Shown in pieces: positions 5,386-42,168 of a stretch of 58,698 nt of DNA. The stretch is from Flavobacteriales bacterium (GTDB lineage: Bacteria > Bacteroidota > Bacteroidia > Flavobacteriales > TMED113). The stretch covers positions 1-58,698 of the forward strand of contig PKDT01000033.1 of NCBI GenBank assembly GCA_002863085.1. The letters are read 5' to 3'. Every line of letters starts with the position of its first letter. The stretch's first letter is position 1. The translations under genes and the position numbers were made by a program. A model generated the notes under the pieces. The model saw only the letters and a list, made by a program, of their open reading frames with translations, had not been told where the DNA came from and made no database searches.

Positions 5386-7464
5386 ATGAGTATTCATATA
5401 AAAGAAGAGATTAAAAAGGTTTTAATCAACAATAGTTCTGGTTTGAACATAAAGCAAATTTGTTGGGAACTAAAAAAAAGATTTAATACTTCTAATGAAA
5501 ACGTATCCTTAATGATAGAAGAGCTAAGCCGAGAGGGTTTAGTAAAAAATCAAAGTTATAAATACAAATTTAATTGGCCCAATAGAAATTTTACGGGAAC
5601 TATATACATTAACCGCTCAGGAAACGGTTATATCAAGTGCGATGAATTTAATCAGGAAATTTTTGTAAGCGAAAAAAATCGTTTGAACACCCTAAATAAA
5701 GATACCGTAAGTTTTAAATTATTAAAACCCCCAAAAAATAAGCTTGAGGGGCAGGTTTGTGGTGTTTTATTAAGAAATAAAACAAAATTTTGGGGAAAAA
5801 TTACAAAAGAAGGACGCAACTTTTTTTTTATTTCTTATAACAAAAGAGATGGTTCTGATTTTTTTATACCTGAAGCGGAATTAAATGGGGCCCAAAATAA
5901 ATCTTCTGTGATTGTAGAACTATCTGATTGGCCAATATCTGCTGGATGCCCGTTTGGGCGGGTAGTTAAGTTATTAAATAATGAAATTGACCTAAACACA
6001 GAAATATCAGCAAATTTAGAACTTTTCAACATTAAAACCCTTTTCTCACAATCAATTAATAAAGAGCTCGCTGAGTTTGATGACGAGGCTATTTATAAAA
6101 CGAATGAAGGTCGAGAAGATTTTAGGCAAATCACAACCTTTACTATTGATCCCACTGATGCAAAAGATTTTGATGATGCAATTTCAATAGTAACACAAAA
6201 AAATGGTAATTATCTTATCGGAGTACATATTGCAGATGTGTCACATTATGTTAAACCTGAATCTGAAATTGATAAAGAAGCATACCTAAGGGCATTCTCA
6301 ATATATTTCCCTGGTCATGTTATTCCAATGTTGCCCGAAAAACTTTCTAATAACTTATGTTCATTAAAAGAGGGAGTTGATAGATTTACTTTTTCGGTAG
6401 TTCTTGAAACTGATAAGGAATTCAATATTTTATCAAATAAAATCACTAAGGGAATAATAAATTCTAACAAAAGATTTTCATATGAGGGTGTCGAAAAAAT
6501 TCTCAGAGACGGAAAGGGCGATTATTTTAATGAATTACATGTCCTAAATCAAGTTGCAAAAAAACAAAGAAAAGCAAGAGTTATTAATGGGTCAATTGAA
6601 TTTGAAAGGTCAAGTGTATCCTTCCATGTTGACAAGTCAGGAAATCCTATTTCAATATCAAAAAAAGTCCCGTTAGATTCACACAAGTTAGTTGAAGAAT
6701 TTATGTTATTAGCAAATAAAACTGTTGCTACTAAGCTAAGGAAAACGCAATCATCAATATTCAGAGTTCATGATCTTCCTGATTTGAAAAAATTAAGAGA
6801 AATATCAAAATACATTTCAAATATTTCCACCGAAAGTGATTTCCCCTGTTTTGAAAAGCTTAAACTTCCAAAGTTTATAAACAAAATTTTAAAAATTGAT
6901 ATAAATAACACAAATCAAGATGCCATAAATAATCTCATTCTTAGATGTATGGCAAAAGCAAAATATAGCTCTAAAAACATTGGTCATTTTGGCTTGGGCT
7001 TTAGTAATTACACACATTTCACGTCCCCCATTAGACGCTACTCAGACCTTTTAGTTCATCGGTTACTAGAAAAATTATTGAAAGGGGAAAGGCTCGTTAT
7101 CTCAAATATCGAAAAAAAGTGTATTCACTTTTCAAATACAGAAAAAACATATACTGATGTTGAAAGAAGTACCGTTAAACTTTTTCAACTCAGCTTACTT
7201 AAGCGATTAATTGGTAATAATTTTACGGGTGTGATTTCGTCAGTGAAAAAATGGGGAATTTATGTTGAACTAGATGGGGGCAGGGGCGAAGGTTTAGTTT
7301 CTAAAGACCACTTAATTGATGATCATTATATTTTTAATGAAAACTTGCATGAGTATGTAGGAATCCGAAACCGTAAGAAATATTTTTTAGGTAAGTCCGT
7401 TACTGTTAAAATTGAAAAAATAGATTTAATGCAAAAAGAAATGGATTTATCTTTTAATGATTGA
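5386..7464 (+). CDS. rnr: Ribonuclease R
   Basis: 692 aa with an N-terminal winged-helix region, RNB catalytic motifs (TIDPTDAKDFDDAIS, HFGLGFSNYTHFTSPIRRYSDLLVHR) and a C-terminal S1 domain (FTGVISSVKKWGIYVEL). Confidence 0.9.
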   Translation: MSIHIKEEIKKVLINNSSGLNIKQICWELKKRFNTSNENVSLMIEELSREGLVKNQSYKYKFNWPNRNFTGTIYINRSGNGYIKCDEFNQEIFVSEKNRLNTLNKDTVSFKLLKPPKNKLEGQVCGVLLRNKTKFWGKITKEGRNFFFISYNKRDGSDFFIPEAELNGAQNKSSVIVELSDWPISAGCPFGRVVKLLNNEIDLNTEISANLELFNIKTLFSQSINKELAEFDDEAIYKTNEGREDFRQITTFTIDPTDAKDFDDAISIVTQKNGNYLIGVHIADVSHYVKPESEIDKEAYLRAFSIYFPGHVIPMLPEKLSNNLCSLKEGVDRFTFSVVLETDKEFNILSNKITKGIINSNKRFSYEGVEKILRDGKGDYFNELHVLNQVAKKQRKARVINGSIEFERSSVSFHVDKSGNPISISKKVPLDSHKLVEEFMLLANKTVATKLRKTQSSIFRVHDLPDLKKLREISKYISNISTESDFPCFEKLKLPKFINKILKIDINNTNQDAINNLILRCMAKAKYSSKNIGHFGLGFSNYTHFTSPIRRYSDLLVHRLLEKLLKGERLVISNIEKKCIHFSNTEKTYTDVERSTVKLFQLSLLKRLIGNNFTGVISSVKKWGIYVELDGGRGEGLVSKDHLIDDHYIFNENLHEYVGIRNRKKYFLGKSVTVKIEKIDLMQKEMDLSFND

Positions 7465-8948: not shown

Positions 8949-8978
8949 TTAAGTTTACTTAATTGCACACTTGTTTAG

Positions 8979-8986
8979 TATTTTTG
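8979..8986 (+). promoter_or_regulatory. Candidate Bacteroidota -7 promoter box (TATTTTTG) for sdhC
   Basis: Matches TAnnTTTG and lies about 25 nt upstream of ATG 9011. This argues that 9011, not 8963, is the sdhC start. Confidence 0.3.
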
Positions 8987-9010
8987 TATACGCAACAATA
9001 CAACAATCTG

Positions 9011-9658
9011 ATGTACACGTCGATATTAAAAAAGGTACTAATGGCGTTGTCTGGAATATTCCTTATGGTTTTTCTAGTCCAACATTTAGCAATTAACCTG
9101 ACTTCTCTCATTCCAGACAATGGCTACACCTTCAATAAAATTTCACACTTTATGGGTTACAACCCAGTTGTGCAGTTTATTCTTCAACCAATATTGATGT
9201 TAGGTGTCTGCTTTCACTTCACAATGGGAATCTTTCTGGAATATCAGAACAGAAGGGCGCGAAAATCAAAATATGTTTTTCACAAGACTCGTAGTTCTTG
9301 GATTTCTAAAAACATGATATTGTCCGGGTTGGTGGTTCTCGCTTTTTTAGCTCTTCACTTTTATGATTTTTGGGTACCTGAAATGGATTATAAATATGTT
9401 AGTAAGTTAATTCCCGCCGAAGATAGATACTATCATGAGCTACAAGAAAAGTTTCACAATTCTACGCGGACTGTTATTTATTGCATATCATTTGTTCTTT
9501 TAGGTCTTCATTTGAATCATGGATTAGCTTCTTCATTTCAGTCTGTAGGCGTTACAACGTCTAGTCAAAAGAAGCTTAAACTTATTGCTAATATATATTC
9601 AATATCTATTGCAATTGGCTTCACTGTTGTTGCAGTTTTCCATTATTTCTCACATTAA
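9011..9658 (+). CDS. sdhC: Succinate dehydrogenase/fumarate reductase cytochrome b subunit (Bacteroidota type)
   Basis: Polytopic membrane protein with conserved His in the helices (VQHLAINL, FHFTMG, ALHFYDF, GLHLNHG). It sits upstream of sdhA/sdhB. The tracked ORF 8963..9658 probably over-extends the N-terminus. Confidence 0.8.
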   Translation: MYTSILKKVLMALSGIFLMVFLVQHLAINLTSLIPDNGYTFNKISHFMGYNPVVQFILQPILMLGVCFHFTMGIFLEYQNRRARKSKYVFHKTRSSWISKNMILSGLVVLAFLALHFYDFWVPEMDYKYVSKLIPAEDRYYHELQEKFHNSTRTVIYCISFVLLGLHLNHGLASSFQSVGVTTSSQKKLKLIANIYSISIAIGFTVVAVFHYFSH

Positions 9659-9682
9659 TGTAAAGAAAACCTCTAATAATTC

Positions 9683-9701
9683 TGTATTTTAACAAAATAC
9701 A
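9683..9701 (+). terminator. Short hairpin (TGTATTTT-AAC-AAAATACA) just after the sdhC stop
   Basis: Perfect 8-bp inverted repeat with a 3-nt loop, followed by AAGCTTATTTT. It is AT-rich and therefore weak. Confidence 0.3.
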
Positions 9702-9800
9702 AAGCTTATTTTGAATTGGACAAAACAAGACAGGTATGTACATTTTTTCTTTATTTTTTTAATTATAAAAAATAAAGTAACTATATTTACATAAAATCTA

Positions 9801-9828
9801 GACAAAGATGGACAAAGATGGACAAATG
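9801..9828. repeat. Tandem decamer GACAAAGATG x2 plus GACAAATG over the start codon
   Basis: Read directly. It creates ATGs at 9808, 9818 and 9826. Confidence 0.9.
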
Positions 9829-12021
9829 TTAAGCATTAAAGAATTGGCTGACGTGTTAAATGTATCACAAAAAACAATACGTCGACACATTAATTCTGGT
9901 AAAATAAAATCTGTCAAAGTGGGAGGGGTGCACAGGATATCTAGAGAGCAGGTCTCCAGCCTGCTTGAAGTTGAGGAGATAATAGTTGATGATTTAATTA
10001 ACATTGGTTTAGAAAGGGGATTTCCCTATGATAGTAAGGTGCCAAGTGGAGATCTGAAGAATAAGTGGAGTAAACACAAAGGGACCATAAACCTTGTTAG
10101 TCCTGCAAACAAAAGAAATATAGACATAATCGTTGTTGGAACTGGATTGGCTGGCGCTTCTGCTTCAGCAACACTGGCCGAACTGGGATATAATGTAAAA
10201 GCTTTTTGCTTTCAAGACTCCCCAAGAAGAGCTCACTCTATAGCAGCACAGGGCGGAATCAATGCATCCAAAAACTATCAAGGTGACGGTGATTCTGATT
10301 ATCGACTTTTTTATGACACAATTAAAGGGGGTGACTACAGATCTCGAGAAGCAAATGTTTACAGGCTCGCCGAAGTATCTGCTAACATAATTGACCAGTG
10401 TGTGGCCCAGGGGGTTCCTTTTGCAAGAGATTATGGGGGGCTTTTAGATAACAGATCTTTTGGTGGAGTATTGGTTTCTAGGACCTTTTATGCTAAGGGG
10501 CAGACGGGGCAACAGCTACTTCTTGGCGCGTACTCCGCTTTAAATAGACAGGTAAACAGAGGAAAGGTTGAAATGTTTTCTAGACACGAAATGATGGATG
10601 TAGTAGTTGTTGATGGTAAGGCTAGGGGCATTATTTCCCGAAATCTTGTAAATGGAAAAATTGAACGACATGGTGCACATGCTGTTGTTATTGCAAGTGG
10701 AGGCTATGGAAATGTTTTTTATTTGTCAACAAACGCGATGGGTAGCAATGTAACAGCAAGTTGGAAAATTCACAAAAAGGGGGCTTTTTTTGCAAACCCC
10801 TGCTTTACTCAAATTCACCCAACATGCATTCCTGTATCAGGAGACCATCAGTCAAAACTGACATTAATGTCTGAGTCGCTAAGAAATGATGGCCGTATTT
10901 GGGTTCCAAAGAATATAGAAGATGCTAAAAAAATAAGAAACAAAGAGTTGAAGCCCACCGAGATTCCTGAAAATGACAGAGATTATTATCTTGAGAGAAG
11001 ATATCCCGCTTTTGGAAACCTGGTTCCGAGAGATGTAGCTTCAAGGGCCGCAAAGGAGCGTTGTGACGCTGGCTATGGGGTAAATAAAACAGGACAGGCA
11101 GTATATCTGGATTTTGCTGCAGCCATAATTAGGTATGGTAAAGAAAAGGCAATCTCTACTGGTCAGGATAAAGATAATATAGATTTAGTAAAATCGCTTG
11201 GAAAAGAAATTATTAAAGCCAAGTATGGAAACCTGTTCCAGATGTACGAAAAAATAGTTGACGAAAATCCTTATGAAACTCCAATGCAAATTTTTCCTGC
11301 CGTACACTACACTATGGGAGGGGTTTGGGTTGACTATAACTTGATGACAACGATACCCGGATGCTTTGCAATTGGTGAAGCCAACTTCTCGGACCACGGG
11401 GCAAATAGACTCGGTGCGTCTGCACTCATGCAAGGTTTGGCAGATGGATATTTTGTGTTGCCATATACAATTGGTGATTATTTAGCAGATGAAATAAAGA
11501 CGGGGCCCATAAAAACAGATACTAAAGAGTTTGATGAGGCTGAATCTGGTGTTAATAAATTCATAGAAAAAATTATGTCTAATAAAAGTGGTAAATCTGT
11601 TGACTACTACCACAGAAAGCTTGGGAAAATCATGTGGGATAAATGCGGCATGTCAAGAAACGCGGAGGACCTTCGGTCTGCAATTACAGAGATCAAAGCT
11701 TTGCGCGAAGAGTTTTATTCTAACGTTTTTGTGCCAGGAGGAGCTGATGGTTACAACGAAGAATTGGCAAAAGCCGGTAGGGTTGCTGACTTTCTTGAGT
11801 TGGGTGAACTTTTTGCACTAGATGCCCTTGAGAGAAATGAGTCTTGTGGAGGACATTTTCGTGAAGAATATCAAACCGAAGAGGGAGAGGCTCTTCGAAA
11901 TGACGAAGAATTCACATTTGTTTCGTGCTGGGAGCATATGGGTAAAGACAAAAAACCCAAACTGAACAAAGAAGAGCTAAATTTTAAATCGGTTGAACTA
12001 AAGTCAAGAAGCTATAAATAG
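9808..12021 (+). CDS. sdhA: Succinate dehydrogenase/fumarate reductase flavoprotein subunit carrying an in-frame N-terminal extension of about 70 aa
   Basis: From about residue 75 onward this is a typical Bacteroidota SdhA: [29 protein letters not shown] (FAD GxGxxG), [16 protein letters not shown] and HYTMGG. There is no in-frame ATG at the expected start, and the frame is open back to ATG 9808. Confidence 0.85.
9829..9966 (+). other. Excisionase/MerR-like helix-turn-helix (HTH_17-type) module encoded at the 5' end of the sdhA ORF
   Basis: [46 protein letters not shown] matches the excisionase-family DNA-binding pattern (L-t-v-x-E-a-A-x-x-L-x-V-S-x-x-T-i-x-R-x-i-x-x-G-x-i-x-x-x-K-i-G-x-x-x-R-I). 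Confidence 0.7.
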
Positions 12022-12022
12022 T

Positions 12023-12769
12023 ATGGAACTTAAATTAAAAATTTGGCGCCAAAAAAATAGTGGCGAAAAGGGCGCAATCATTGATTATAATGTCAAAAAA
12101 ATAGATCCTGATATGTCTTTTCTGGAAATGTTAGACGTTTTAAACCAAGACCTAATTAAAAGCGGTGAAGAGCCTGTTGCTTTTGACCACGATTGTCGAG
12201 AGGGGATTTGTGGAATGTGTTCCCTAGTGATAAATGGGTCGCCTCATGGCCCCGACAAAGGAACAACTACATGTCAACTGCACATGAGAAGATTCAAGTC
12301 TGGCGACACGATATACATTGAACCCTTCCGAGGCACTGCATTCCCTGTAATCAAAGACCTCGTTGTTGATAGATCAGCGTTTGATCGAATACAACAGTCC
12401 GGGGGCTATGTTTCTGTAAACACCTCTGGAAACACTGTCGATGCAAATGCCACGCCAATACCAAAACCAGATGCCGATGAGGCCTTTAAAGCTGCTGCTT
12501 GTATTGGTTGCGGAGCATGCGTTGCTTCATGTAAAAATTCGTCCGCAATGTTGTTTGTTGGGGCGAAGGTTTCGCAATATTCAAGATTACCGCAAGGTAA
12601 AGTTGAGGCCAGAGAGCGTGTTTTAAATATGGTAAAACAAATGGACAAAGAGGGGTTTGGGAATTGCACAAATACAGGGGCCTGCGAAGCACATTGCCCC
12701 AAGGGCATTTCTCTAGATAATATTTTGAATCTAAACCGGGAATACATTAAAGCAAAAATTAGAAAATGA
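12023..12769 (+). CDS. sdhB: Succinate dehydrogenase/fumarate reductase iron-sulfur subunit
   Basis: Three Cys clusters: [20 protein letters not shown] and [12 protein letters not shown]. It starts 1 nt after sdhA. Confidence 0.9.
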
Positions 12770-33712: not shown

Positions 33713-34283
33713 CCCCTTGAAGGAAACGAATAAACTTTTGTTGTGGGTATTTATTTTTGTTCTTGTAGCGGTTGATCAACTTTCAAAATTTTTAACCAAA
33801 TCAAATCTTGAGCTTGGTGAATCAATATCTATTTTGCCCTGGTTCAAAATATTTTTCATTGAAAATAACGGTTTTGCTTTTGGTTTAGAAATTTTTGGAA
33901 AATACGGTAAATTAGCGCTAACGCTTACTCGGATTTTTTTCGTCTCATTTTTGATTTTTTGGTTTAGCAGGTTGTTAAAATACAAAAACATCAATAGTAT
34001 GTTGGTTTTGTCTTTCTGCCTCGTTATTTCTGGAGCTATAGGTAATATTGTTGATAGTGTTTTTTACGGACATATATACGGTTATGCTCCCATTTTTTAT
34101 GGAAAGGTTGTTGATATGCTGTACTTTCCTATATTAGAAACAGCTTTTCCTTCATGGATTCCCTTTTTAGGTGGAAATAAGTTCAGTTTTTTTAAATACG
34201 TATTTAATTTGGCTGATAGTTACATAACGGTTGGAGCCTTTATTTTGTTTTTTTCTTATAAGTATATTCCGTCCAAATTATAG
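33687..34283 (+). CDS. lspA: Lipoprotein signal peptidase (signal peptidase II)
   Basis: Four TM segments, DQLSK, NNGFAFG and FNLADS motifs. The start is uncertain: TTG 33687 overlaps the upstream gene, and TTG 33717 is an alternative. Confidence 0.85.
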   Translation: MRQKTNLNSPLKETNKLLLWVFIFVLVAVDQLSKFLTKSNLELGESISILPWFKIFFIENNGFAFGLEIFGKYGKLALTLTRIFFVSFLIFWFSRLLKYKNINSMLVLSFCLVISGAIGNIVDSVFYGHIYGYAPIFYGKVVDMLYFPILETAFPSWIPFLGGNKFSFFKYVFNLADSYITVGAFILFFSYKYIPSKL

Positions 34284-34301
34284 TTTTTTCTATTTGTTCT
34301 T

Positions 34302-34309
34302 TATATTTG
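34302..34309 (+). promoter_or_regulatory. Candidate -7 promoter box (TATATTTG) for hppA
   Basis: Matches TAnnTTTG and lies 20 nt upstream of ATG 34329. Confidence 0.3.
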
Positions 34310-34328
34310 CGCAAAATATATATAAAAT

Positions 34329-36548
34329 ATGGATTTACTTAATAACAACTTAGTTTTTATTGCCCCAATTTTAGGGGTAATCGGTTTAATTTTTATGTTT
34401 ATAAAGTCTGCGTGGGTGTCCAAGCAGGACCCTGGAGACAAAAAAATGGTTGAGCTTTCTGGACATATTGCCAAAGGGGCAATGGCGTTTCTTGTTGCTG
34501 AATGGAAGGTTTTAGCTATTTTTTCTGTCATAGCAGCGGGTTTATTAGCATGGTCTGGAACTCTTGTTGAAACCTCTACGCCCTATATTGCAGTATCGTT
34601 TTTAATCGGTGCTGTTTTCTCCGCTTTAGCTGGATATTTTGGAATGAATATAGCAACAAAGGCAAACGTCCGAACCACACAAGCAGCTAGAAATAGTTTG
34701 GCTAAGGCATTAAAAGTTTCATTTGTTGGTGGAACAGTAATGGGTCTTGGTGTCGCTGGGTTAGCTGTTTTTGGTCTTGGTAGTTTGTTTATTTTATTTA
34801 ACCACATGTACAGCGCATCGGTTGGAGGGTTTGTTGATTTGCATAATATGGAAATTGCTTTAGAAGTTTTAGCTGGTTTTTCGTTAGGTGCGGAATCTAT
34901 TGCTTTGTTTGCCCGTGTTGGTGGTGGTATATACACTAAAGCTGCGGATGTCGGTGCTGACCTTGTTGGAAAAGTTGAAGCTGGTATTCCTGAAGACGAC
35001 CCTCGTAATCCTGCTACAATTGCTGATAACGTAGGAGACAACGTAGGAGATGTTGCGGGTATGGGTGCTGATTTATTTGGTTCTTATGTAGCAACGATTC
35101 TTGCAACTATGGTGCTAGGAAGAGAGGTTGTTGTTGGTACTGCAAATTCTGAGGGGATGTATGAGTCAATGCCGTTCATTTTGCTACCAATGATTATTGC
35201 TGGTTTAGGTTTAATTTTTTCAATTATTGGCGCTGCTTTTGTAAAAATTAAAAATGAAAATGGGTCCGTTCAAGGTGCATTAAATATTGGTAACTGGCTG
35301 TCAATTGTGCTTACGCTTGTTGCTTCTTACTTTTTAATCGAGTCCTTAATTCCATCATCCGAAATATCAATTCGTGGAGACTCTTTTACCAAATCAGGAA
35401 TTTTTTGGGCTGTGTTCACGGGTTTGGTTGTTGGTGGACTAATGTCTATAATAACCGAATATTACACATCTATGGGTAAAAGACCTGTTAACTCAATTAT
35501 AAAACAATCTTCGACGGGGCATGCAACTAATATTATTGGGGGTTTAGCTGTTGGAATGGAATCAACCGTCCTTCCAATAATCATTCTTGCTGCAGGGATT
35601 TTTGTTTCATTTCTTTGTGCAGGACTTTACGGAGTAGCAATAGCTGCTGCGGGTATGATGGCAACTACAGCAATGCAGTTAGCAATTGATGCCTTTGGGC
35701 CTATTGCTGACAATGCGGGTGGAATTGCAGAGATGAGTGGGCTACCTAATGAGGTAAGAGAAAGAACCGATAACCTTGATGCCGTTGGAAACACTACCGC
35801 AGCTGCAGGTAAAGGTTTTGCTATAGCTTCTGCTGCTCTAACTGCTCTTGCTCTTTTTGCTGCTTTTGTTGGTTTAGCTGGTATAGACTCAATTGATATT
35901 TATAAAGCTGACGTTCTTGCTGGTCTATTTGTTGGTGCTATGATTCCATTTATATTTTCTTCTCTTGCAATTGCTGCAGTAGGACGAGCTGCGATGGATA
36001 TGGTAAAAGAGGTACGTAGACAGTTCAAAGAAATTCCTGGAATAATGGAAGGAAAAGCTACTCCTGAATATGAAAAATGTGTTGAAATTTCTACAAATGC
36101 ATCTATACGTGAAATGTTGCTACCTGGTGCAATACCTTTAGTGGTACCCGTGTTTGTTGGTTTTGTTTTTGGTCCTGAAGTTTTAGGGGGATTATTGGCT
36201 GGTGTTACTGTATCTGGAGTACTAATGGGTATTTTTCAAAACAATGCTGGTGGTGCTTGGGATAATGCAAAAAAAGCAATTGAAGCAAGCGGTGAAAAGG
36301 GGTCTGAATCACACAAGGCGTCTGTTACTGGAGATACAGTAGGAGATCCGTTTAAAGACACATCTGGTCCGTCCATGAATATATTAATTAAATTAATGAG
36401 TATTGTAGCATTAGTTATTGCTCCACACATAAAAGTGGATAAAGAAACTACAAAAAACCACTCTGATTTGTTTGAATCAAATCAAAGCCTGGTGATTGAA
36501 AAAAGTTTTAATGAAAAGGTTGATGACACTACCCTTTATACAAATTAA
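34329..36548 (+). CDS. hppA: Membrane-bound ion-translocating pyrophosphatase, K+-dependent subfamily
   Basis: 739 aa and polytopic, with [29 protein letters not shown] and [13 protein letters not shown]. Ala rather than Lys in the GNTT(A/K) motif marks K+-dependent enzymes. Confidence 0.95.
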
Positions 36549-37557: not shown

Positions 37558-39294
37558 ATGTTAGAAAAAAGTTTGCTTTTAAAAGCTAAAAATATTCCTA
37601 ATACTTTTGGTATTTATATGTTTATTGATATTAACAAGTCTCCTATTTATGTTGGAAAATCTAACAACTTAAAAACAAGAGTTTTATCTTATTTTAAAAA
37701 AAAAACTGAAAAAGATGAATTAATAATTAAAAATGCCCACAACATAGACTATGTTTTAGTTAATAATGAAAATGATGCATTTTTACTTGAAAATAATTTA
37801 ATAAAAAAATATCAACCTAAATATAATATATTATTAAAAGATGATAAAAACTACCCTTGGCTTTGTATAACAAATGAAAGATTTCCAAGACTATTAATAG
37901 TTAGAAAAAAACAAGAAAATAAGAATATTTATTTTGGTCCCTACTTATCAAAAAAACATCTACAAAATCTTTATAGTTTTATTGTTTCTTATTACCCTAT
38001 TAGATCTTGTAAGTTTGATCTATCTAAAGAAAATATTAAGAACAAAAAATACAAAGTATGTTTGGATTATCATTTGAAAAAGTGTGATGGTCCCTGTGAA
38101 GGTCTTCAAAAAGAAATGGATTATAATAAGAATATTAACTCTATCAAAAATTTACTAAACGGTAAATACTCAAAGGTTATAAAAGAGTTAGAAAAAAAAC
38201 TTTCTCTTTTTTCAAATAAACTTTTATTTGAAAAAGCAGAGGAAGTAAAAAATCAAATTTTTTCATTAAATAAACTTAAACATAAAAGTATAATTGTATC
38301 TCCAAAAAATGTTAATATTGATAGCTTTTATATTATTGAAGATGACAAATTTTATTATGTTAATTTTATAAGAGTTATTGAGGGCTCTATTATATTTCTA
38401 AAAAATCTACGAATAAAAAATATAAATTTTTGGAGTTTAGATTTTATATTTTATACTGTGCTTTCTAAATTTTACGTAGATTTAGGTTCTCTTTCAAAAG
38501 ATATAATATCAAATATTAATTATACTTTTCGTGGTAAACCTATCTCCAATCCTAAAGTTGGATACAAAAAAGAAATATTAAACCTTGGTTTAAGAAATCT
38601 AAATAATTACATAAATAAAAAATACAATAATAAACACAATAACATTGTTGATTTAAAGAAAGATCTTAAACTAAAAAATATACCATTTGTAATTGAATGT
38701 TTTGATATTTCACATCTAAAAGGAAAATATACTATTGGTTCTTGTGTTGTTTTTAAAAATGGTAAACCTTCTAAAAAAGATTACAGATTTTACAATATAA
38801 AATCTTTTGAAGGGATAAACGATTATTTAGCAATTGAAGAAGTTCTTAATAGAAGATATATTAAATTAAAAAAACTTCCTGACTTAATAGTAATTGACGG
38901 TGGAAAAGGTCAATTATCATCCGCTAAAAAAGTTATAAATAAATTAAAAATAAAAAAATTAGAATTTCTTAGTATTGCTAAGAAAGAAGAAATTATATAT
39001 AAAGAAAATGGTACAGAAATAATATTAGATAAAAAATCTAAGTCTCTAAAATTAATACAACAATTAAGGGACGAAGCTCATCGCTTTTGTTTAAAAAATC
39101 ATAGAAAAAAAAGAGAAAAATCTTTTATTAAAACCGAACTTGACTCTGTTCCTGGAATTGGACATCTTACTGTAAAAAAGCTTCTTAAACAATTTAAGTC
39201 TACTCAAAAAATGAGAATGTTGGATAAAGAAGACCTAATATCATTTATAGGAAAATCAAAAGGATTGAAAGTTTATGAATATTTAAGAAAATAA
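37558..39294 (+). CDS. uvrC: Excinuclease ABC subunit C
   Basis: GIY-YIG N-terminus (GIYMFID...IYVGKSNNLKTRVLSYF...NNLIKKYQPKYN), the Cys-rich CDGPC region, FDISH in the endonuclease V-like domain and a C-terminal HhH (VPGIGHLTVKKLL). It is very AT-rich. Confidence 0.9.
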   Translation: MLEKSLLLKAKNIPNTFGIYMFIDINKSPIYVGKSNNLKTRVLSYFKKKTEKDELIIKNAHNIDYVLVNNENDAFLLENNLIKKYQPKYNILLKDDKNYPWLCITNERFPRLLIVRKKQENKNIYFGPYLSKKHLQNLYSFIVSYYPIRSCKFDLSKENIKNKKYKVCLDYHLKKCDGPCEGLQKEMDYNKNINSIKNLLNGKYSKVIKELEKKLSLFSNKLLFEKAEEVKNQIFSLNKLKHKSIIVSPKNVNIDSFYIIEDDKFYYVNFIRVIEGSIIFLKNLRIKNINFWSLDFIFYTVLSKFYVDLGSLSKDIISNINYTFRGKPISNPKVGYKKEILNLGLRNLNNYINKKYNNKHNNIVDLKKDLKLKNIPFVIECFDISHLKGKYTIGSCVVFKNGKPSKKDYRFYNIKSFEGINDYLAIEEVLNRRYIKLKKLPDLIVIDGGKGQLSSAKKVINKLKIKKLEFLSIAKKEEIIYKENGTEIILDKKSKSLKLIQQLRDEAHRFCLKNHRKKREKSFIKTELDSVPGIGHLTVKKLLKQFKSTQKMRMLDKEDLISFIGKSKGLKVYEYLRK

Positions 39295-39314
39295 TGTTAA
39301 TAAAATGTTAATAA
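39293..39314. repeat. Perfect tandem duplication of AATGTTAATAA
   Basis: Read directly at the uvrC stop. A further ATGTTAATAA copy lies near 39436. Confidence 0.8.
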
Positions 39315-39370
39315 TCTTAAAATTGATTAACAATACAATTTATTTATTTTTTTTTTTAAATTTTATTAAA

Positions 39371-39396
39371 ATAATGTTGGTATTTATCAACATTAT
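39371..39396. terminator. Hairpin ATAATGTTG-(8 nt)-CAACATTAT between the convergent uvrC and beta-helix genes
   Basis: Perfect 9-bp inverted repeat flanked by A/T runs on both sides, so it could act bidirectionally. The AT-rich stem makes it weak. Confidence 0.35.
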
Positions 39397-39556
39397 AAAA
39401 ATATTATTTAATAACAATTCATATTAATTATAGTGATGTTAATAAACTTAATAAAATCATATAGTATTGTAAATAAGTTGTTTAAAATTATTAATAAATA
39501 AAAAAAACAATATATTTTATATAATATTATTATATAAACTAACAATACTATTATTA

Positions 39557-40636
39557 TTAGTTTATATATTTTAAATATTTATAATAATATATCTTTGTTA
39601 AATTTGCTCCTATGTTTTTGTTATTGGTTCCAAATCTTATTGCTGGTGAATTTTTTAAAAGATCAAAATCATAAGTATTTTTGTTTTTAAAAACTTCTTT
39701 AGAATTTAAATTATAAAAACCAGTCAAATTAAAATTATCAGAAAGACAATAACTATTATTAATATTTATGTTTGTTAAATTAAATAATTCTTTGTTTTCA
39801 CTGAAAATATTATTTTTTGAAATAATAACTTCATCACTAATTTTATTCAAATTAATATAAATTAATAATTCATTTTTGTAAAAAGTGTTGTTAAGTATAT
39901 AAGTACTATTGCTAAAATAATTTGATTGCATAAATTTTTTATTTTCAATTATCAAATTGTTATATATATTTATATTTTTAATATTATCTAATAGTTTAAT
40001 ACATATACTATTTTTTTCAAATATGTTATTTAAAAAATTAATATTTTTTGTGTTTTTTATAATAAAGACATCATTATTTTTATAAAAATAGTTGTTATTA
40101 AAAATGACGTTTTCGGATTGAATAATTTTTAATTTTGTATTATTTGTTAAAAAACAATTAGTTGTTTTTATTGAACCTTTTGTTATTTCTAATACAGAAT
40201 TATTAAAGTCATTATTATTTAACTTTAAATTTCCATTATTTGAGATAAACTTTAAATTTTTAAATTTTGAATTGTAAATACTAATAATACTATTATTTAT
40301 AATAAAGGATCCCCTCTTATTCCCAATAAAAACAACTGATTTTATATTTTCTAATGTGTCATTTTTTATAGAATATTGGCTATATTTTTTAGAATTTTCA
40401 CCTACTTTAAATATTCCATTATTTATTATAATTCCATTTTTATTAAATTTAATTTCAGATTTTCCAGAGATTATTAATGTTTTATTTTTTGGAATAACTA
40501 AACTATCATCTATTAATATTTTTTTATTTTGATAATCTAAATATGATTCATTATTAAAACTATTATTATTAATTTTTATATAATTATTACAACTTATTGT
40601 AATTAGTAAAAAAAAATATATATAAGATGGTTTCAT
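39557..40636 (-). CDS. Lipoprotein with right-handed parallel beta-helix-like repeats (N/I/K-rich)
   Basis: Lipobox LLITISC. There are many roughly 22-aa repeats of the form NNxFxxNxxxIxI (NNNYFYKNNDVFII, NFLNNIFEKNSICI, NIYNNLIIENKKF, ILNNTFYKNELLIY, ISKNNIFSEN). Confidence 0.5.
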   Translation of the reverse strand: MKPSYIYFFLLITISCNNYIKINNNSFNNESYLDYQNKKILIDDSLVIPKNKTLIISGKSEIKFNKNGIIINNGIFKVGENSKKYSQYSIKNDTLENIKSVVFIGNKRGSFIINNSIISIYNSKFKNLKFISNNGNLKLNNNDFNNSVLEITKGSIKTTNCFLTNNTKLKIIQSENVIFNNNYFYKNNDVFIIKNTKNINFLNNIFEKNSICIKLLDNIKNINIYNNLIIENKKFMQSNYFSNSTYILNNTFYKNELLIYINLNKISDEVIISKNNIFSENKELFNLTNININNSYCLSDNFNLTGFYNLNSKEVFKNKNTYDFDLLKNSPAIRFGTNNKNIGANLTKIYYYKYLKYIN

Positions 40637-42168
40637 TTTATAAAACTATTGGAATATAAAAGTTTCTTAGTGTAAAGATGTCTATCATTGGATTTTATAT
40701 TATTTGTTTTAAAATTATCAACAATTTTTCCATCCTTTATTATGTAAACTTTATCACACAAGAAATTTATAGAATTTAAATCATGAGATATAAAAATAAT
40801 TGTAATTTTTAAATAAATGTTTAAGTCTCTTATAAGGTTTAATATGGTATATTTTATGTCTAAGTCTAGACCAGAAAGGGACTCATCAAATATAATTAAA
40901 TCAGGAGACGATGCAAGAACTCTTGCAATTGATAATCTTTGTTTTTCTCCACCCGAAAGTTGTGAAGGAAAAAAATTTAAATATTCAGTATCTAGTCCCA
41001 CTAATTGTAATAGTTCTAAAGAAGAAAAAGGAGAATTGTTTACTTTAATAATTTCATTAATAATATTATTAATTTTAATTTTTGGATTAAAAGAAGAATA
41101 AGGATCTTGGTAAACTAATTGAATTTTTTTAAATGAAATATTTTTATAAAATTTACCTGAAAAGTTAGATTCTAGACCACATAATAATCTGCCTAAAGTT
41201 GTTTTTCCTGAACCAGACCCCCCTGCAATTCCAATTTTTTCACCACTATTAATATTAAAATGTATGTCATTAAGAGCTTTAAAAGTTATATTTTTTTTAT
41301 TAAAAGAAACTGATAAGTTTTTTATAGAAATGTTAAAATCATTTTTTGAATAAATATTTCTCAAATTTGTAATTCCAATTTCCTCAAATAATGAATTAAA
41401 TTTTTTATTTCTAATTTTTGATTGAATCAAATTTTTACTTTTAATATGATTTTTATGAGTTGTAGTTTTAAAATCAAAAAGTTTACAATTTTTATATACA
41501 TAAAATTTTTTGCAATATAATTCCAATAAATCTATATTATGACTTATTAGCAAAACAGCTAATTTTCTTTTTTTACTGATCTTAACGATTAGGTCTAAAA
41601 CATTTCTTTGTGTTATTGGATCAAGCGATGTTGTAGGTTCATCAGCTATTAAGATTTTAGGGTTTTTTAAAAGAGACATGGCTATTACAACTCGTTGTTT
41701 TTGACCGCCCGAAATTTCATGAGGATATGAATTAAAAATTTTTTTAGGATTATCAATTCCAACTTCTTTTAGTAAATCAATACACTTATTACGAGCAAAA
41801 TTTTCATTTTTAGTAATATAAAAATACTCCTCCATTTGATGTCCGCATTTTATTGTAGGATTTAAACTAGTGGTTGGATCTTGGAATATGATAGATATAT
41901 ATTTTTTTCGAAAATCACACCATAAGGATTCACTATTAGAAGTAAAATCAAAAGTATAATTCTTATTAATGAATAATGCAGATGTTGCGGAGCACTTAAA
42001 AACAGAATTATTTAAAAAACCCATAATAAAAAAACAAAAGACCGACTTACCTGAACCAGAATCACCAAAAATTCCTATGATTTCGCCAGAATTAATTTTT
42101 AAAAAAGCAGATTTTAATATTTGCTTTTTATTTATTGAAATGTCAAGGTTATTTATTTCTATTTTCAA
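40633..42168 (-). CDS. ABC transporter ATP-binding protein with two fused nucleotide-binding domains (Dpp/Opp D-F type)
   Basis: NBD1 has GDSGSGKS, ISGGQKQR and ILIADEPTTSLD. NBD2 has GGSGSGKT, LSGGEKQR and LIIFDESLSGLD. There are no transmembrane segments. Confidence 0.85.
   Translation of the reverse strand: MKIEINNLDISINKKQILKSAFLKINSGEIIGIFGDSGSGKSVFCFFIMGFLNNSVFKCSATSALFINKNYTFDFTSNSESLWCDFRKKYISIIFQDPTTSLNPTIKCGHQMEEYFYITKNENFARNKCIDLLKEVGIDNPKKIFNSYPHEISGGQKQRVVIAMSLLKNPKILIADEPTTSLDPITQRNVLDLIVKISKKRKLAVLLISHNIDLLELYCKKFYVYKNCKLFDFKTTTHKNHIKSKNLIQSKIRNKKFNSLFEEIGITNLRNIYSKNDFNISIKNLSVSFNKKNITFKALNDIHFNINSGEKIGIAGGSGSGKTTLGRLLCGLESNFSGKFYKNISFKKIQLVYQDPYSSFNPKIKINNIINEIIKVNNSPFSSLELLQLVGLDTEYLNFFPSQLSGGEKQRLSIARVLASSPDLIIFDESLSGLDLDIKYTILNLIRDLNIYLKITIIFISHDLNSINFLCDKVYIIKDGKIVDNFKTNNIKSNDRHLYTKKLLYSNSFIK

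Follow-up and report, generated by a model that had tools for sequence, protein, structure and literature searches.

A helix-turn-helix domain of the excisionase family fused to the succinate dehydrogenase flavoprotein of marine Flavobacteriales, beside phased repeats that may serve as its operators

Why should the flavoprotein subunit (SdhA) of complex II, which is among the most conserved enzymes of central metabolism, begin with a domain of a DNA-binding type? The question is raised by contig PKDT01000033.1 of a Flavobacteriales bacterium (assembly GCA_002863085.1), a stretch of 58,698 nucleotides that was analyzed whole and is called the window here, in which a helix-turn-helix (HTH) coding segment stands between sdhC and sdhA of the sdhCAB operon and runs in frame into sdhA. 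A sequence-only reading made beforehand had described this arrangement, and its coordinates all hold: sdhC ends at 9658, the frame 9808–12021 is open from the ATG at 9808, no in-frame ATG lies near 10030, an out-of-frame ATG is present at 10028–10030, and both TGATAGTAA at 10029–10037 and the in-frame GTG at 10039–10041 are where it placed them. The parts of the fused gene are the following.

9808–12021, plus strand: HTH_17-linker-SdhA fusion protein, a single open reading frame (ORF) of 737 aa, open from the ATG at 9808.
9826–9969, plus strand: HTH_17/excisionase-family winged-helix domain, aa 7–54.
9970–10029, plus strand: linker, flexible, variable and acidic, aa 55–74 (20 aa), with low predicted local distance difference test (pLDDT) scores, 13 lengths among the fusion loci and an FP[FYR] end.
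10027–12021, plus strand: complete SdhA flavoprotein part, aa 74–737.

Residues 7–54 match the Pfam family HTH_17 (PF12728) with an E value of 2e-13 (50.8 bits, cutoff 27) and the TIGR01764 "excise" model with an E value of 1.2e-12 (47.9 bits, cutoff 28.8). With both hidden Markov model matches above the curated cutoffs, the excisionase-type assignment made by eye stands, and the segment is a bona fide HTH_17/excisionase-family domain. Profile searches of the PDB found the Pukovnik excisionase Xis (4J2N, 8.5e-9) and BldC (6AMA, 1.2e-5; 6AMK, about 1e-5). An AlphaFold2 (AF2) model of residues 1–130, with pLDDT values of 82–91 over residues 11–50, predicts a beta-alpha-alpha-beta-beta-alpha winged helix, for which the first Foldseek match was again 4J2N (TM-score 0.79, root mean square deviation 1.0 Å, 42% identity), followed by the BldC-DNA complexes 6AMA and 6AMK, RacA and RdfS; the modeled fold is thus of the type found in Xis, BldC and the N terminus of MerR. 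The AF2 model of the full-length protein is poor (pLDDT 61) and was used for the linker only, where residues 51–60 and 61–70 score 38 and 31 and are predicted to be disordered. The protein as a whole was also considered as a recombination directionality factor (RDF), an identity that we rejected for a 737-aa ORF that is not stand-alone, lies among housekeeping neighbors and has no integrase or att context in the flanks examined.

The remainder of the protein is a complete SdhA. Residues 74–737 align with positions 6–641 of the SdhA model NF005749 at 1161.7 bits (cutoff 866), TIGR01811 (the sdhA_Bsu type) scores 946.8 bits (cutoff 541), and both PF00890 (FAD_binding_2) and PF02910 (Succ_DH_flav_C) are present. 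This part is 82–83% identical to unfused SdhA proteins of 667 aa. It carries the GTGLAG motif of the FAD fold, with Gly-111, Gly-113, Leu-114, Ala-115 and Gly-116 invariant in an alignment of 76 sequences, as is the conserved His-143, and its gene sits between the cytochrome b gene (sdhC, ending at 9658) and sdhB (starting at 12023). We therefore regard it as a bona fide SdhA with predicted catalytic activity, and a domain of DNA-binding type is joined covalently to an enzyme that is catalytically complete by its sequence.

Could the fusion be an artifact of sequencing or assembly? Insertion of one G near position 10028 would give a small HTH protein ending ...FPYG-stop and an SdhA beginning MDSKVPSG, the two-gene alternative that the sequence-only reading had set beside the fusion. 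The identical protein is, however, encoded in an independently deposited ENA assembly (P0121 cluster, 38 member sequences), and further contigs encode proteins 98% and 91% identical to the fusion of the window. A full-length search returned about 88 clusters (at 90% identity) of 727–765 aa with HTH_17 and both SdhA domains, and a search with the first 130 residues gave a dozen diverged HTH_17 plus FAD_binding_2 fragments from marine metagenomes; where public names are given they are plainly "succinate dehydrogenase flavoprotein subunit" (for example, in Flavobacteriales bacterium TMED191). At the DNA level the fusion occurs in six loci of metagenome-assembled genomes (MAGs; NAT88, NAT99, SP256, two in SP3073 and one in a Crocinitomicaceae MAG) and in about 45 loci of metagenomes (TARA and other ocean assemblies), and the statistics over fusion loci given below refer to 47 independent loci. 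Across the MAG and metagenome loci the HTH is 44–98% identical to that of the window, and everywhere the ORF follows sdhC directly and in frame. The linker, measured from GGVHRI to PxG, has 13 lengths between 26 and 47 aa with the frame kept in all of them, including L093–L095, of which L094 has an in-frame 6-nt insertion. When the 58-aa HTH was used as a protein query, no closely related small HTH protein that stands alone turned up, and four fragments were the only result; an exhaustive representative search with the HTH returned mostly multi-HTH repeat proteins and is uninformative on architecture. Because the frame recurs in independent and in diverged assemblies, the one-base-indel reading is ruled out, and an error of this kind is hardly credible. 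The fusion that the sequence-only reading had read from one contig is a real, conserved feature of the clade.

Nor does translation from within the gene offer a way round the HTH. At the codon of the GTG at 10039, which had been put forward as an internal start, 19 loci have GTT and 13 have GTG; over the 12 codons before the PxG motif, 28 of the 47 loci lack any ATG, GTG or TTG. We rejected the internal start for this reason, and most loci can thus make SdhA only as the fusion polypeptide. Some records of the same region need care. The long-read contig L001 (ERZ28548058 contig_19680_pilon) has the same synteny with frameshifts throughout and its genes in pieces of 30–150 aa, and the "separate" 96-aa HTH protein called on it (P0013) was rejected as a stand-alone gene and is an assembly artifact. 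The records P0207 and P0181 have ORFs called too far upstream, through the repeats described below, and so acquire artificial N termini (for example, MDKSGQKWT...GQKWT) that are translated repeat DNA. The two HTH-sdhA loci of MAG SP3073 (L086 and L087) differ from each other, lie on different contigs and have HTHs 57 and 55% identical to that of the window; either the bin is mixed or one genome has two sdh operons.

How did the domain come to lie there? The canonical sdhCAB operons of the Bacteroidetes/Bacillus type share the gene order, the complete SdhA and the tight sdhA-sdhB coupling with the window, and differ from it in their shorter spacer (about 12 nt), in lacking an internal promoter and in the start of SdhA, which is M(A/S)xLDSK(I/V)P. 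In 71 unfused loci of Flavobacteriia and other Bacteroidota, with this N terminus, the sdhC-sdhA spacer has a median of 12 nt, GACA occurs 0.6 times per kb and there are no phased pairs of it. The SdhA of the fusion clade lacks the first three or four residues and has in their place the HTH, the linker and an FP(F/Y) junction, a conserved motif that lies at 10021–10029 at the end of the linker. Since the unfused relatives have a 12-nt spacer, the HTH module is an insertion between sdhC and sdhA, as had been proposed. One lineage seems to have gone the other way. Locus L173 (2983–3045; protein P0166; also P0167), from a close relative, has the same synteny, a 17-nt spacer and an unfused SdhA of 673 aa with the start MKPNDKKFPIPSKVP. 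The end of the fusion linker (FPxP) is still there, whereas HTH and repeats are absent; it is apparently a secondary deletion of the cassette.

The inserted DNA consists of more than the coding segment. The spacer and the start of the gene contain the following elements.

9659–9807, plus strand: sdhC-sdhA spacer, 149 nt, 20% GC (median of 12 nt in unfused relatives).
9718–9747, plus strand: putative upstream operator cluster, three 10-nt-phased direct repeats GGACAAAACA / AGACAGGTAT / GTACATTTTT.
9782–9789, plus strand: variant of the Bacteroidetes sigma-A -7 box, TATATTTA, between the repeat clusters.
9800–9829, plus strand: putative start-proximal operator cluster AGACAAAGAT / GGACAAAGAT / GGACAAATGT, overlapping the ATG at 9808.

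The GACAA repeats, which had been flagged before and which we regard as the central feature, are far above chance: RGACAANNNNRGACA has three copies in the window, all within 9718–9824, against 0.15 expected. The upstream cluster is bordered by a conserved left flank, TTATTT(A/T)GAAyT, at about 9706–9717. Over the fusion loci, plus-strand GACA reaches 23.8 per kb in the interval from -170 to +30, against a background of 2.9 and 1.7 on the minus strand, and 115 of 177 successive GACA gaps are exactly 10 nt. Relative to the ATG the GACA starts are fixed at -17, -7, +3 and +13 across loci. The paired motif RGACA-N5-RGACA is found in all 47 loci, with 102 occurrences in 9.4 kb, compared with five in 594 kb elsewhere (related flanks, both strands counted), and these five all lie further upstream within the same sdh operon. 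In one branch (L133, 2230–2300; L135, about 1380–1450) they form four 10-nt-phased GGACA repeats that follow a TATATTTG box directly before sdhC, and the putative operator would there also stand at the operon promoter.

The near-consensus -7 box noted between the clusters is present in the window, and TAnnTTTG occurs within 120 nt upstream of the ATG in 33 of the 47 fusion loci (0.08 expected per locus), mostly 25–35 nt before it. In Bacteroidetes this box occupies -12 to -5 (PMC9723704), which would place the transcription start site near 9794. An internal promoter is thus implied, relative to which the upstream cluster would span about -76 to -47 and the downstream one about +7 to +36. A scan for sigma-70 TTGACA/TATAAT promoters gave six candidates against 6.1 expected and was set aside, this being the wrong promoter type for Bacteroidetes.

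Might the repeats act at the level of RNA or translation instead, or bind another factor, with the HTH association a matter of hitch-hiking? The start-proximal cluster is A-rich and lies in the 5' untranslated region and the first codons, and an A-rich, unstructured start could favor initiation in the Shine-Dalgarno-less Bacteroidetes, in which initiation is dependent on the sequence near the start (PMC6847099). The upstream cluster, however, falls outside the predicted transcript, and the exact 10-nt phasing, the strand specificity and the T-R-GACA-A core go beyond A-richness. The start-proximal cluster encodes MDKDGQM, that is, the same DNA word is read as D-K in one frame and as G-Q in another, which favors constraint at the level of DNA. 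We consider an RNA-level role very unlikely.

What argues most strongly for the repeats as binding sites of the HTH comes from a second enzyme. All 23 complete non-SdhA relatives of the HTH are C5 cytosine methyltransferases with an N-terminal HTH_17 domain (408–616 aa, all but one 408–462 aa). PF00145 matched the three that were tested with E values of 1e-65 to 1e-69, and 22 of the 23 carry motifs I, IV and VI. Their promoters have the -7 box followed at once by two to five 10-nt-phased GACAA units that run into the ATG (for example, TTTGGACAAATAGAGACAAATAGAGACAAATAGAGACAAATATG in L144), and the unit consensus a-T-R-GACA-A-a is common to both groups. Repeats and HTH occur together, and exclusively so, in two unrelated enzyme contexts; it is the HTH that the repeats accompany, whichever enzyme it is joined to, which points to promoter, operator and HTH as one portable unit. 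The kinship with small stand-alone excisionases of integrative elements that the sequence-only reading had assumed gives way to this, as the nearest relatives are N-terminal domains of C5 methyltransferases with the same GACAA repeats. In a neighbor-joining tree of the 47-aa HTH cores the SdhA-type HTHs group with a "GGVHRI" subgroup of the methyltransferases; this tree is without resolution and gives neither the direction of transfer nor a single origin.

The likeness to methyltransferases of the M.SsoII, M.Ecl18kI and M.EcoRII type is that of an enzyme with an N-terminal HTH and an operator over its own promoter, an arrangement shared by the HTH_17 plus PF00145 relatives. In the characterized SsoII type the HTH belongs to another class, and its site is an inverted repeat. 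In our locus, by contrast, the partner is SdhA and the candidate operators are direct-repeat arrays, and the HTH_17-methyltransferases are uncharacterized. C5 methyltransferases with an N-terminal HTH repress their own promoter (PMC3874152), and the HTH_17 enzymes probably do so as well. These apparently uncharacterized methyltransferase loci are L139, L142, L144, L146, L148–L151, L153–L170, L089 and L090. No restriction partner was found beside the L142 methyltransferase, whose neighbors are an Exo_endo_phos protein and an MscS channel, and the L160 enzyme has an extra C-terminal region of about 190 aa.

A cassette that moves between genes could have left nothing more than an evolutionary scar: a promoter-HTH unit derived from a mobile element or a methyltransferase landed in the operon, only in-frame fusions that restored expression survived, and the HTH is now a passive tag. 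The module is foreign to sdh and common to methyltransferases, the L173 lineage does without it, and the different N-terminal modules of other lineages (described below) suggest a capture-prone junction. A passive tag would decay, however, and the HTH core is under strong purifying selection: the proportion of synonymous differences is 0.75–0.95, which is saturation, and that of nonsynonymous differences is 0.07–0.14, with dN/dS ratios of 0.02–0.06 in most computable pairs (0.16 in one; one pair with three differences is uninformative). Across the HTHs there is little or no variation in the recognition helix SQKTIRRHI and the wing GGVHRI, and the phased repeats have been kept in every fusion locus and recur at the second promoter of the same operon in L133 and L135. 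We judge the scar unlikely.

The reading that we favor, and hold to be probable with moderate confidence, is that a portable cassette of a sigma-A promoter, phased repeats and an Xis/BldC-type HTH has been fused to SdhA and autoregulates sdhAB. The only SdhA encoded in the operon is the HTH-bearing form, with the domain on a flexible linker, and phased GACAA arrays flank the internal promoter in all 47 loci, so that binding by the HTH that also accompanies them on the methyltransferases can be suggested. Of known systems, BldC of Streptomyces, the Xis (gp37) of mycobacteriophage Pukovnik, lambda Xis, RdfS and Apl belong to the same domain family and are the best PDB matches by sequence and by fold. 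On direct repeats BldC monomers line up head-to-tail into cooperative multimers (PMC5859096), and the sites of RDFs are in general direct repeats spaced by about one helical turn (PMC7498355), a geometry that matches the 10-nt-phased, single-strand GACAA arrays seen here. These regulators differ in being free-standing proteins of 55–70 aa that act in recombination or in global developmental regulation, whereas here the HTH is joined to a flavoprotein of 660 aa.

By analogy, HTH-SdhA molecules would bind head-to-tail to both repeat clusters (about -76 to -47 and about +7 to +36), and the bound protein would feed the level of SdhA back onto sdhAB transcription. The start-proximal array would most likely repress, because it overlaps the start region. 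The likeliest DNA-binding species would be the unassembled SdhA pool, since assembled SdhA is on the membrane with SdhB and SdhC, and the feedback would then bear on subunit balance. From these patterns we infer that the domain binds DNA, whether it represses or activates, and how far assembly or the flavin redox state might matter; with that qualification, the proposal that a DNA-binding module is wired to sdh expression draws support from the clade-wide fusion and its repeats.

Several points weigh against autoregulation by the fusion. DNA binding and regulation are deduced from arrangement and homology. The HTH was apparently lost in L173 (P0166), which would make the domain dispensable in at least one lineage. 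The -7 box of the window ends in A where the consensus has G, and 14 of the 47 loci are without an exact TAnnTTTG. The upstream array might serve cooperativity, looping, activation or repression. With sites 10 bp apart, three bulky SdhA moieties, each of about 70 kDa, may be too close for binding without a steric clash. Finally, the search for further sites covered one 58.7-kb window and short flanks, and a wider regulon may exist. This last point touches the alternative that the HTH binds DNA and has its main role elsewhere, acting in trans on other genes with GACAA arrays or anchoring either complex II or the sdh locus at the nucleoid or the membrane. A conserved HTH that is competent for DNA binding by homology would suit such a role, and the DNA searched is a small part of any genome; all paired sites, however, in the window and in about 594 kb of flanks on both strands, lie in control regions of the sdh operon, and we think a main role in trans or as a tether rather improbable.

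A further version of autoregulation takes its model from PutA, a membrane-associated proline dehydrogenase and flavoenzyme with an N-terminal DNA-binding domain that acts as a redox-dependent repressor of its own put operon (Ostrovsky de Spicer & Maloy 1993, as cited in PMC6168545). In this version SdhA would be bifunctional: the free or unassembled (or the oxidized or reduced) form would bind the GACAA arrays and shut off or tune sdhAB, assembly of complex II would remove the protein from DNA, and the arrangement would have arisen several times independently. Repeated origin is proposed on the ground that SdhA is joined to unrelated N-terminal modules in other marine lineages, where each spacer has direct repeats of its own. 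The likeness is that of a peripheral-membrane flavin dehydrogenase with an N-terminal DNA-binding domain, and other trigger enzymes (BirA, NadR and RbkR) may be set beside it; the concept is set out in PMC8249747 and PMC5397151. The differences are that PutA has a ribbon-helix-helix domain and a demonstrated redox-dependent switch from DNA to membrane, whereas HTH-SdhA is known from sequence, and that SdhA, unlike PutA, is one subunit of a multi-subunit complex. HTH-SdhA would thus work like PutA and the SsoII-type enzymes without being a member of either family. We regard the PutA-like version as possible but doubtful.

The other extensions are of three kinds. One, which we call type B, is a 779-aa SdhA whose N-terminal ~110 aa match Arm-DNA-bind_5 (PF17293; E value 2.9e-9, 37.8 bits, cutoff 22.6); it occurs in marine single-amplified genomes (SAGs; AG-337-B04, AG-893-K11, AG-447-K23 and others) and in MAG MED-G122 (L002, 8351–8989; L003, 4548 to the end; L180–L186, match at 2501), and its spacer has two direct GGGGYACAA repeats, GGGGCACAAAAT / GGGGTACAAC, and then TATATTTG a few nucleotides before the ATG. 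The second (type C) is a 760-aa SdhA beginning MKKVKIRYRxNSNGTSSIRLNYFHGYE (L176, 3001–5283; L177–L179, match at 2501; P0216 and P0224), which had no match in Pfam or, by sequence, in the PDB and has four direct GTG(T/C)ACCT repeats in its spacer. The third (type D) is a 771-aa SdhA beginning MPKKKLTYSLNYRRPK from SAG AG-461-G08 (L054, about 5410–5670, with the ORF from 5671); it had no Pfam match and has two pairs of GTGTTACA(A/T)A direct repeats in a 158-nt spacer. The relative P0022 gave a sub-threshold Arm-DNA-bind_5 match only (E value 0.0067), and hhalign found no similarity between types B and C. Only type B is a certified Arm-DNA-bind_5 domain. The set as a whole suggests that SdhA has repeatedly captured DNA-binding modules of mobile elements.

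The sequence-only reading had remarked that such an arrangement was not known to it from any description, and our literature searches likewise gave no account of an HTH-SdhA fusion or of the other SdhA extensions. As far as we have found, an SdhA with a DNA-binding domain is unreported, and the sequences are already public under plain SdhA names. The fusion is the sole SdhA of the operon in widespread Flavobacteriales of the surface ocean (TARA and other marine assemblies). It is a candidate for a new trigger enzyme that would link respiration and the tricarboxylic acid (TCA) cycle to transcription in streamlined, regulator-poor genomes, and it exposes what looks like a portable promoter-operator-HTH cassette common to SdhA and to orphan C5 methyltransferases. 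If the PutA-like version were true, the assembly or redox state of a core enzyme of the TCA cycle and respiration would set its own expression with no separate transcription factor.

The genes of the two partner subunits on either side of the fused gene are the following.

9011–9658, plus strand: sdhC, cytochrome b subunit (the syntenic genes in L173 and L002 give a faint Sdh_cyt match).
12023–12769, plus strand: sdhB, iron-sulfur subunit, 1 nt past the sdhA stop (the syntenic genes match Fer2_3/Fer4).

The mechanical ORF of sdhC runs from a TTG at 8963 to 9658, and its start is likely the ATG at 9011 (MYTSILKK...); TATTTTTG, a -7-like box, lies near it at about 8980–8987. By synteny the neighbors are housekeeping genes (an RNase R-type RNB gene, a Big_5 protein, sdhC, sdhB, an M24 peptidase, an AIRS-domain gene and suf genes), and no integrase was seen in the flanks examined. 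The HTH stretch had been called locally GC-rich, which is correct beside the spacer (39% against 20% GC) and amounts only to ordinary coding composition, with sdhA at 41% and sdhC at 34%; as its composition equals that of other coding DNA, it was rejected as a sign of foreign origin. The spacer has no match in Rfam, whose sole match in the window is a tRNA-Thr. A hairpin had also been claimed in the spacer, and it fared less well.

9683–9701, plus strand: weak A/U-rich hairpin with an 8-bp stem, not significant and not terminator-like.

Its stability does not exceed that of shuffled sequence (z = 0.14), and with no terminator-like site found we rejected it as a terminator.

Elsewhere in the window, positions 38001–42000 have a G+C content of 19–21% compared with about 33% in the rest. 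This stretch covers the 3' part of uvrC (37558–39294), a 359-aa ORF without a Pfam match (39557–40636, minus strand) and an ABC-F-type ATPase (40633–42168, minus strand). Positions 34001–36000 have a strongly negative AT skew (-0.21) over an H+-pyrophosphatase gene (34329–36548), presumably because the codons of so hydrophobic a membrane protein are rich in T.

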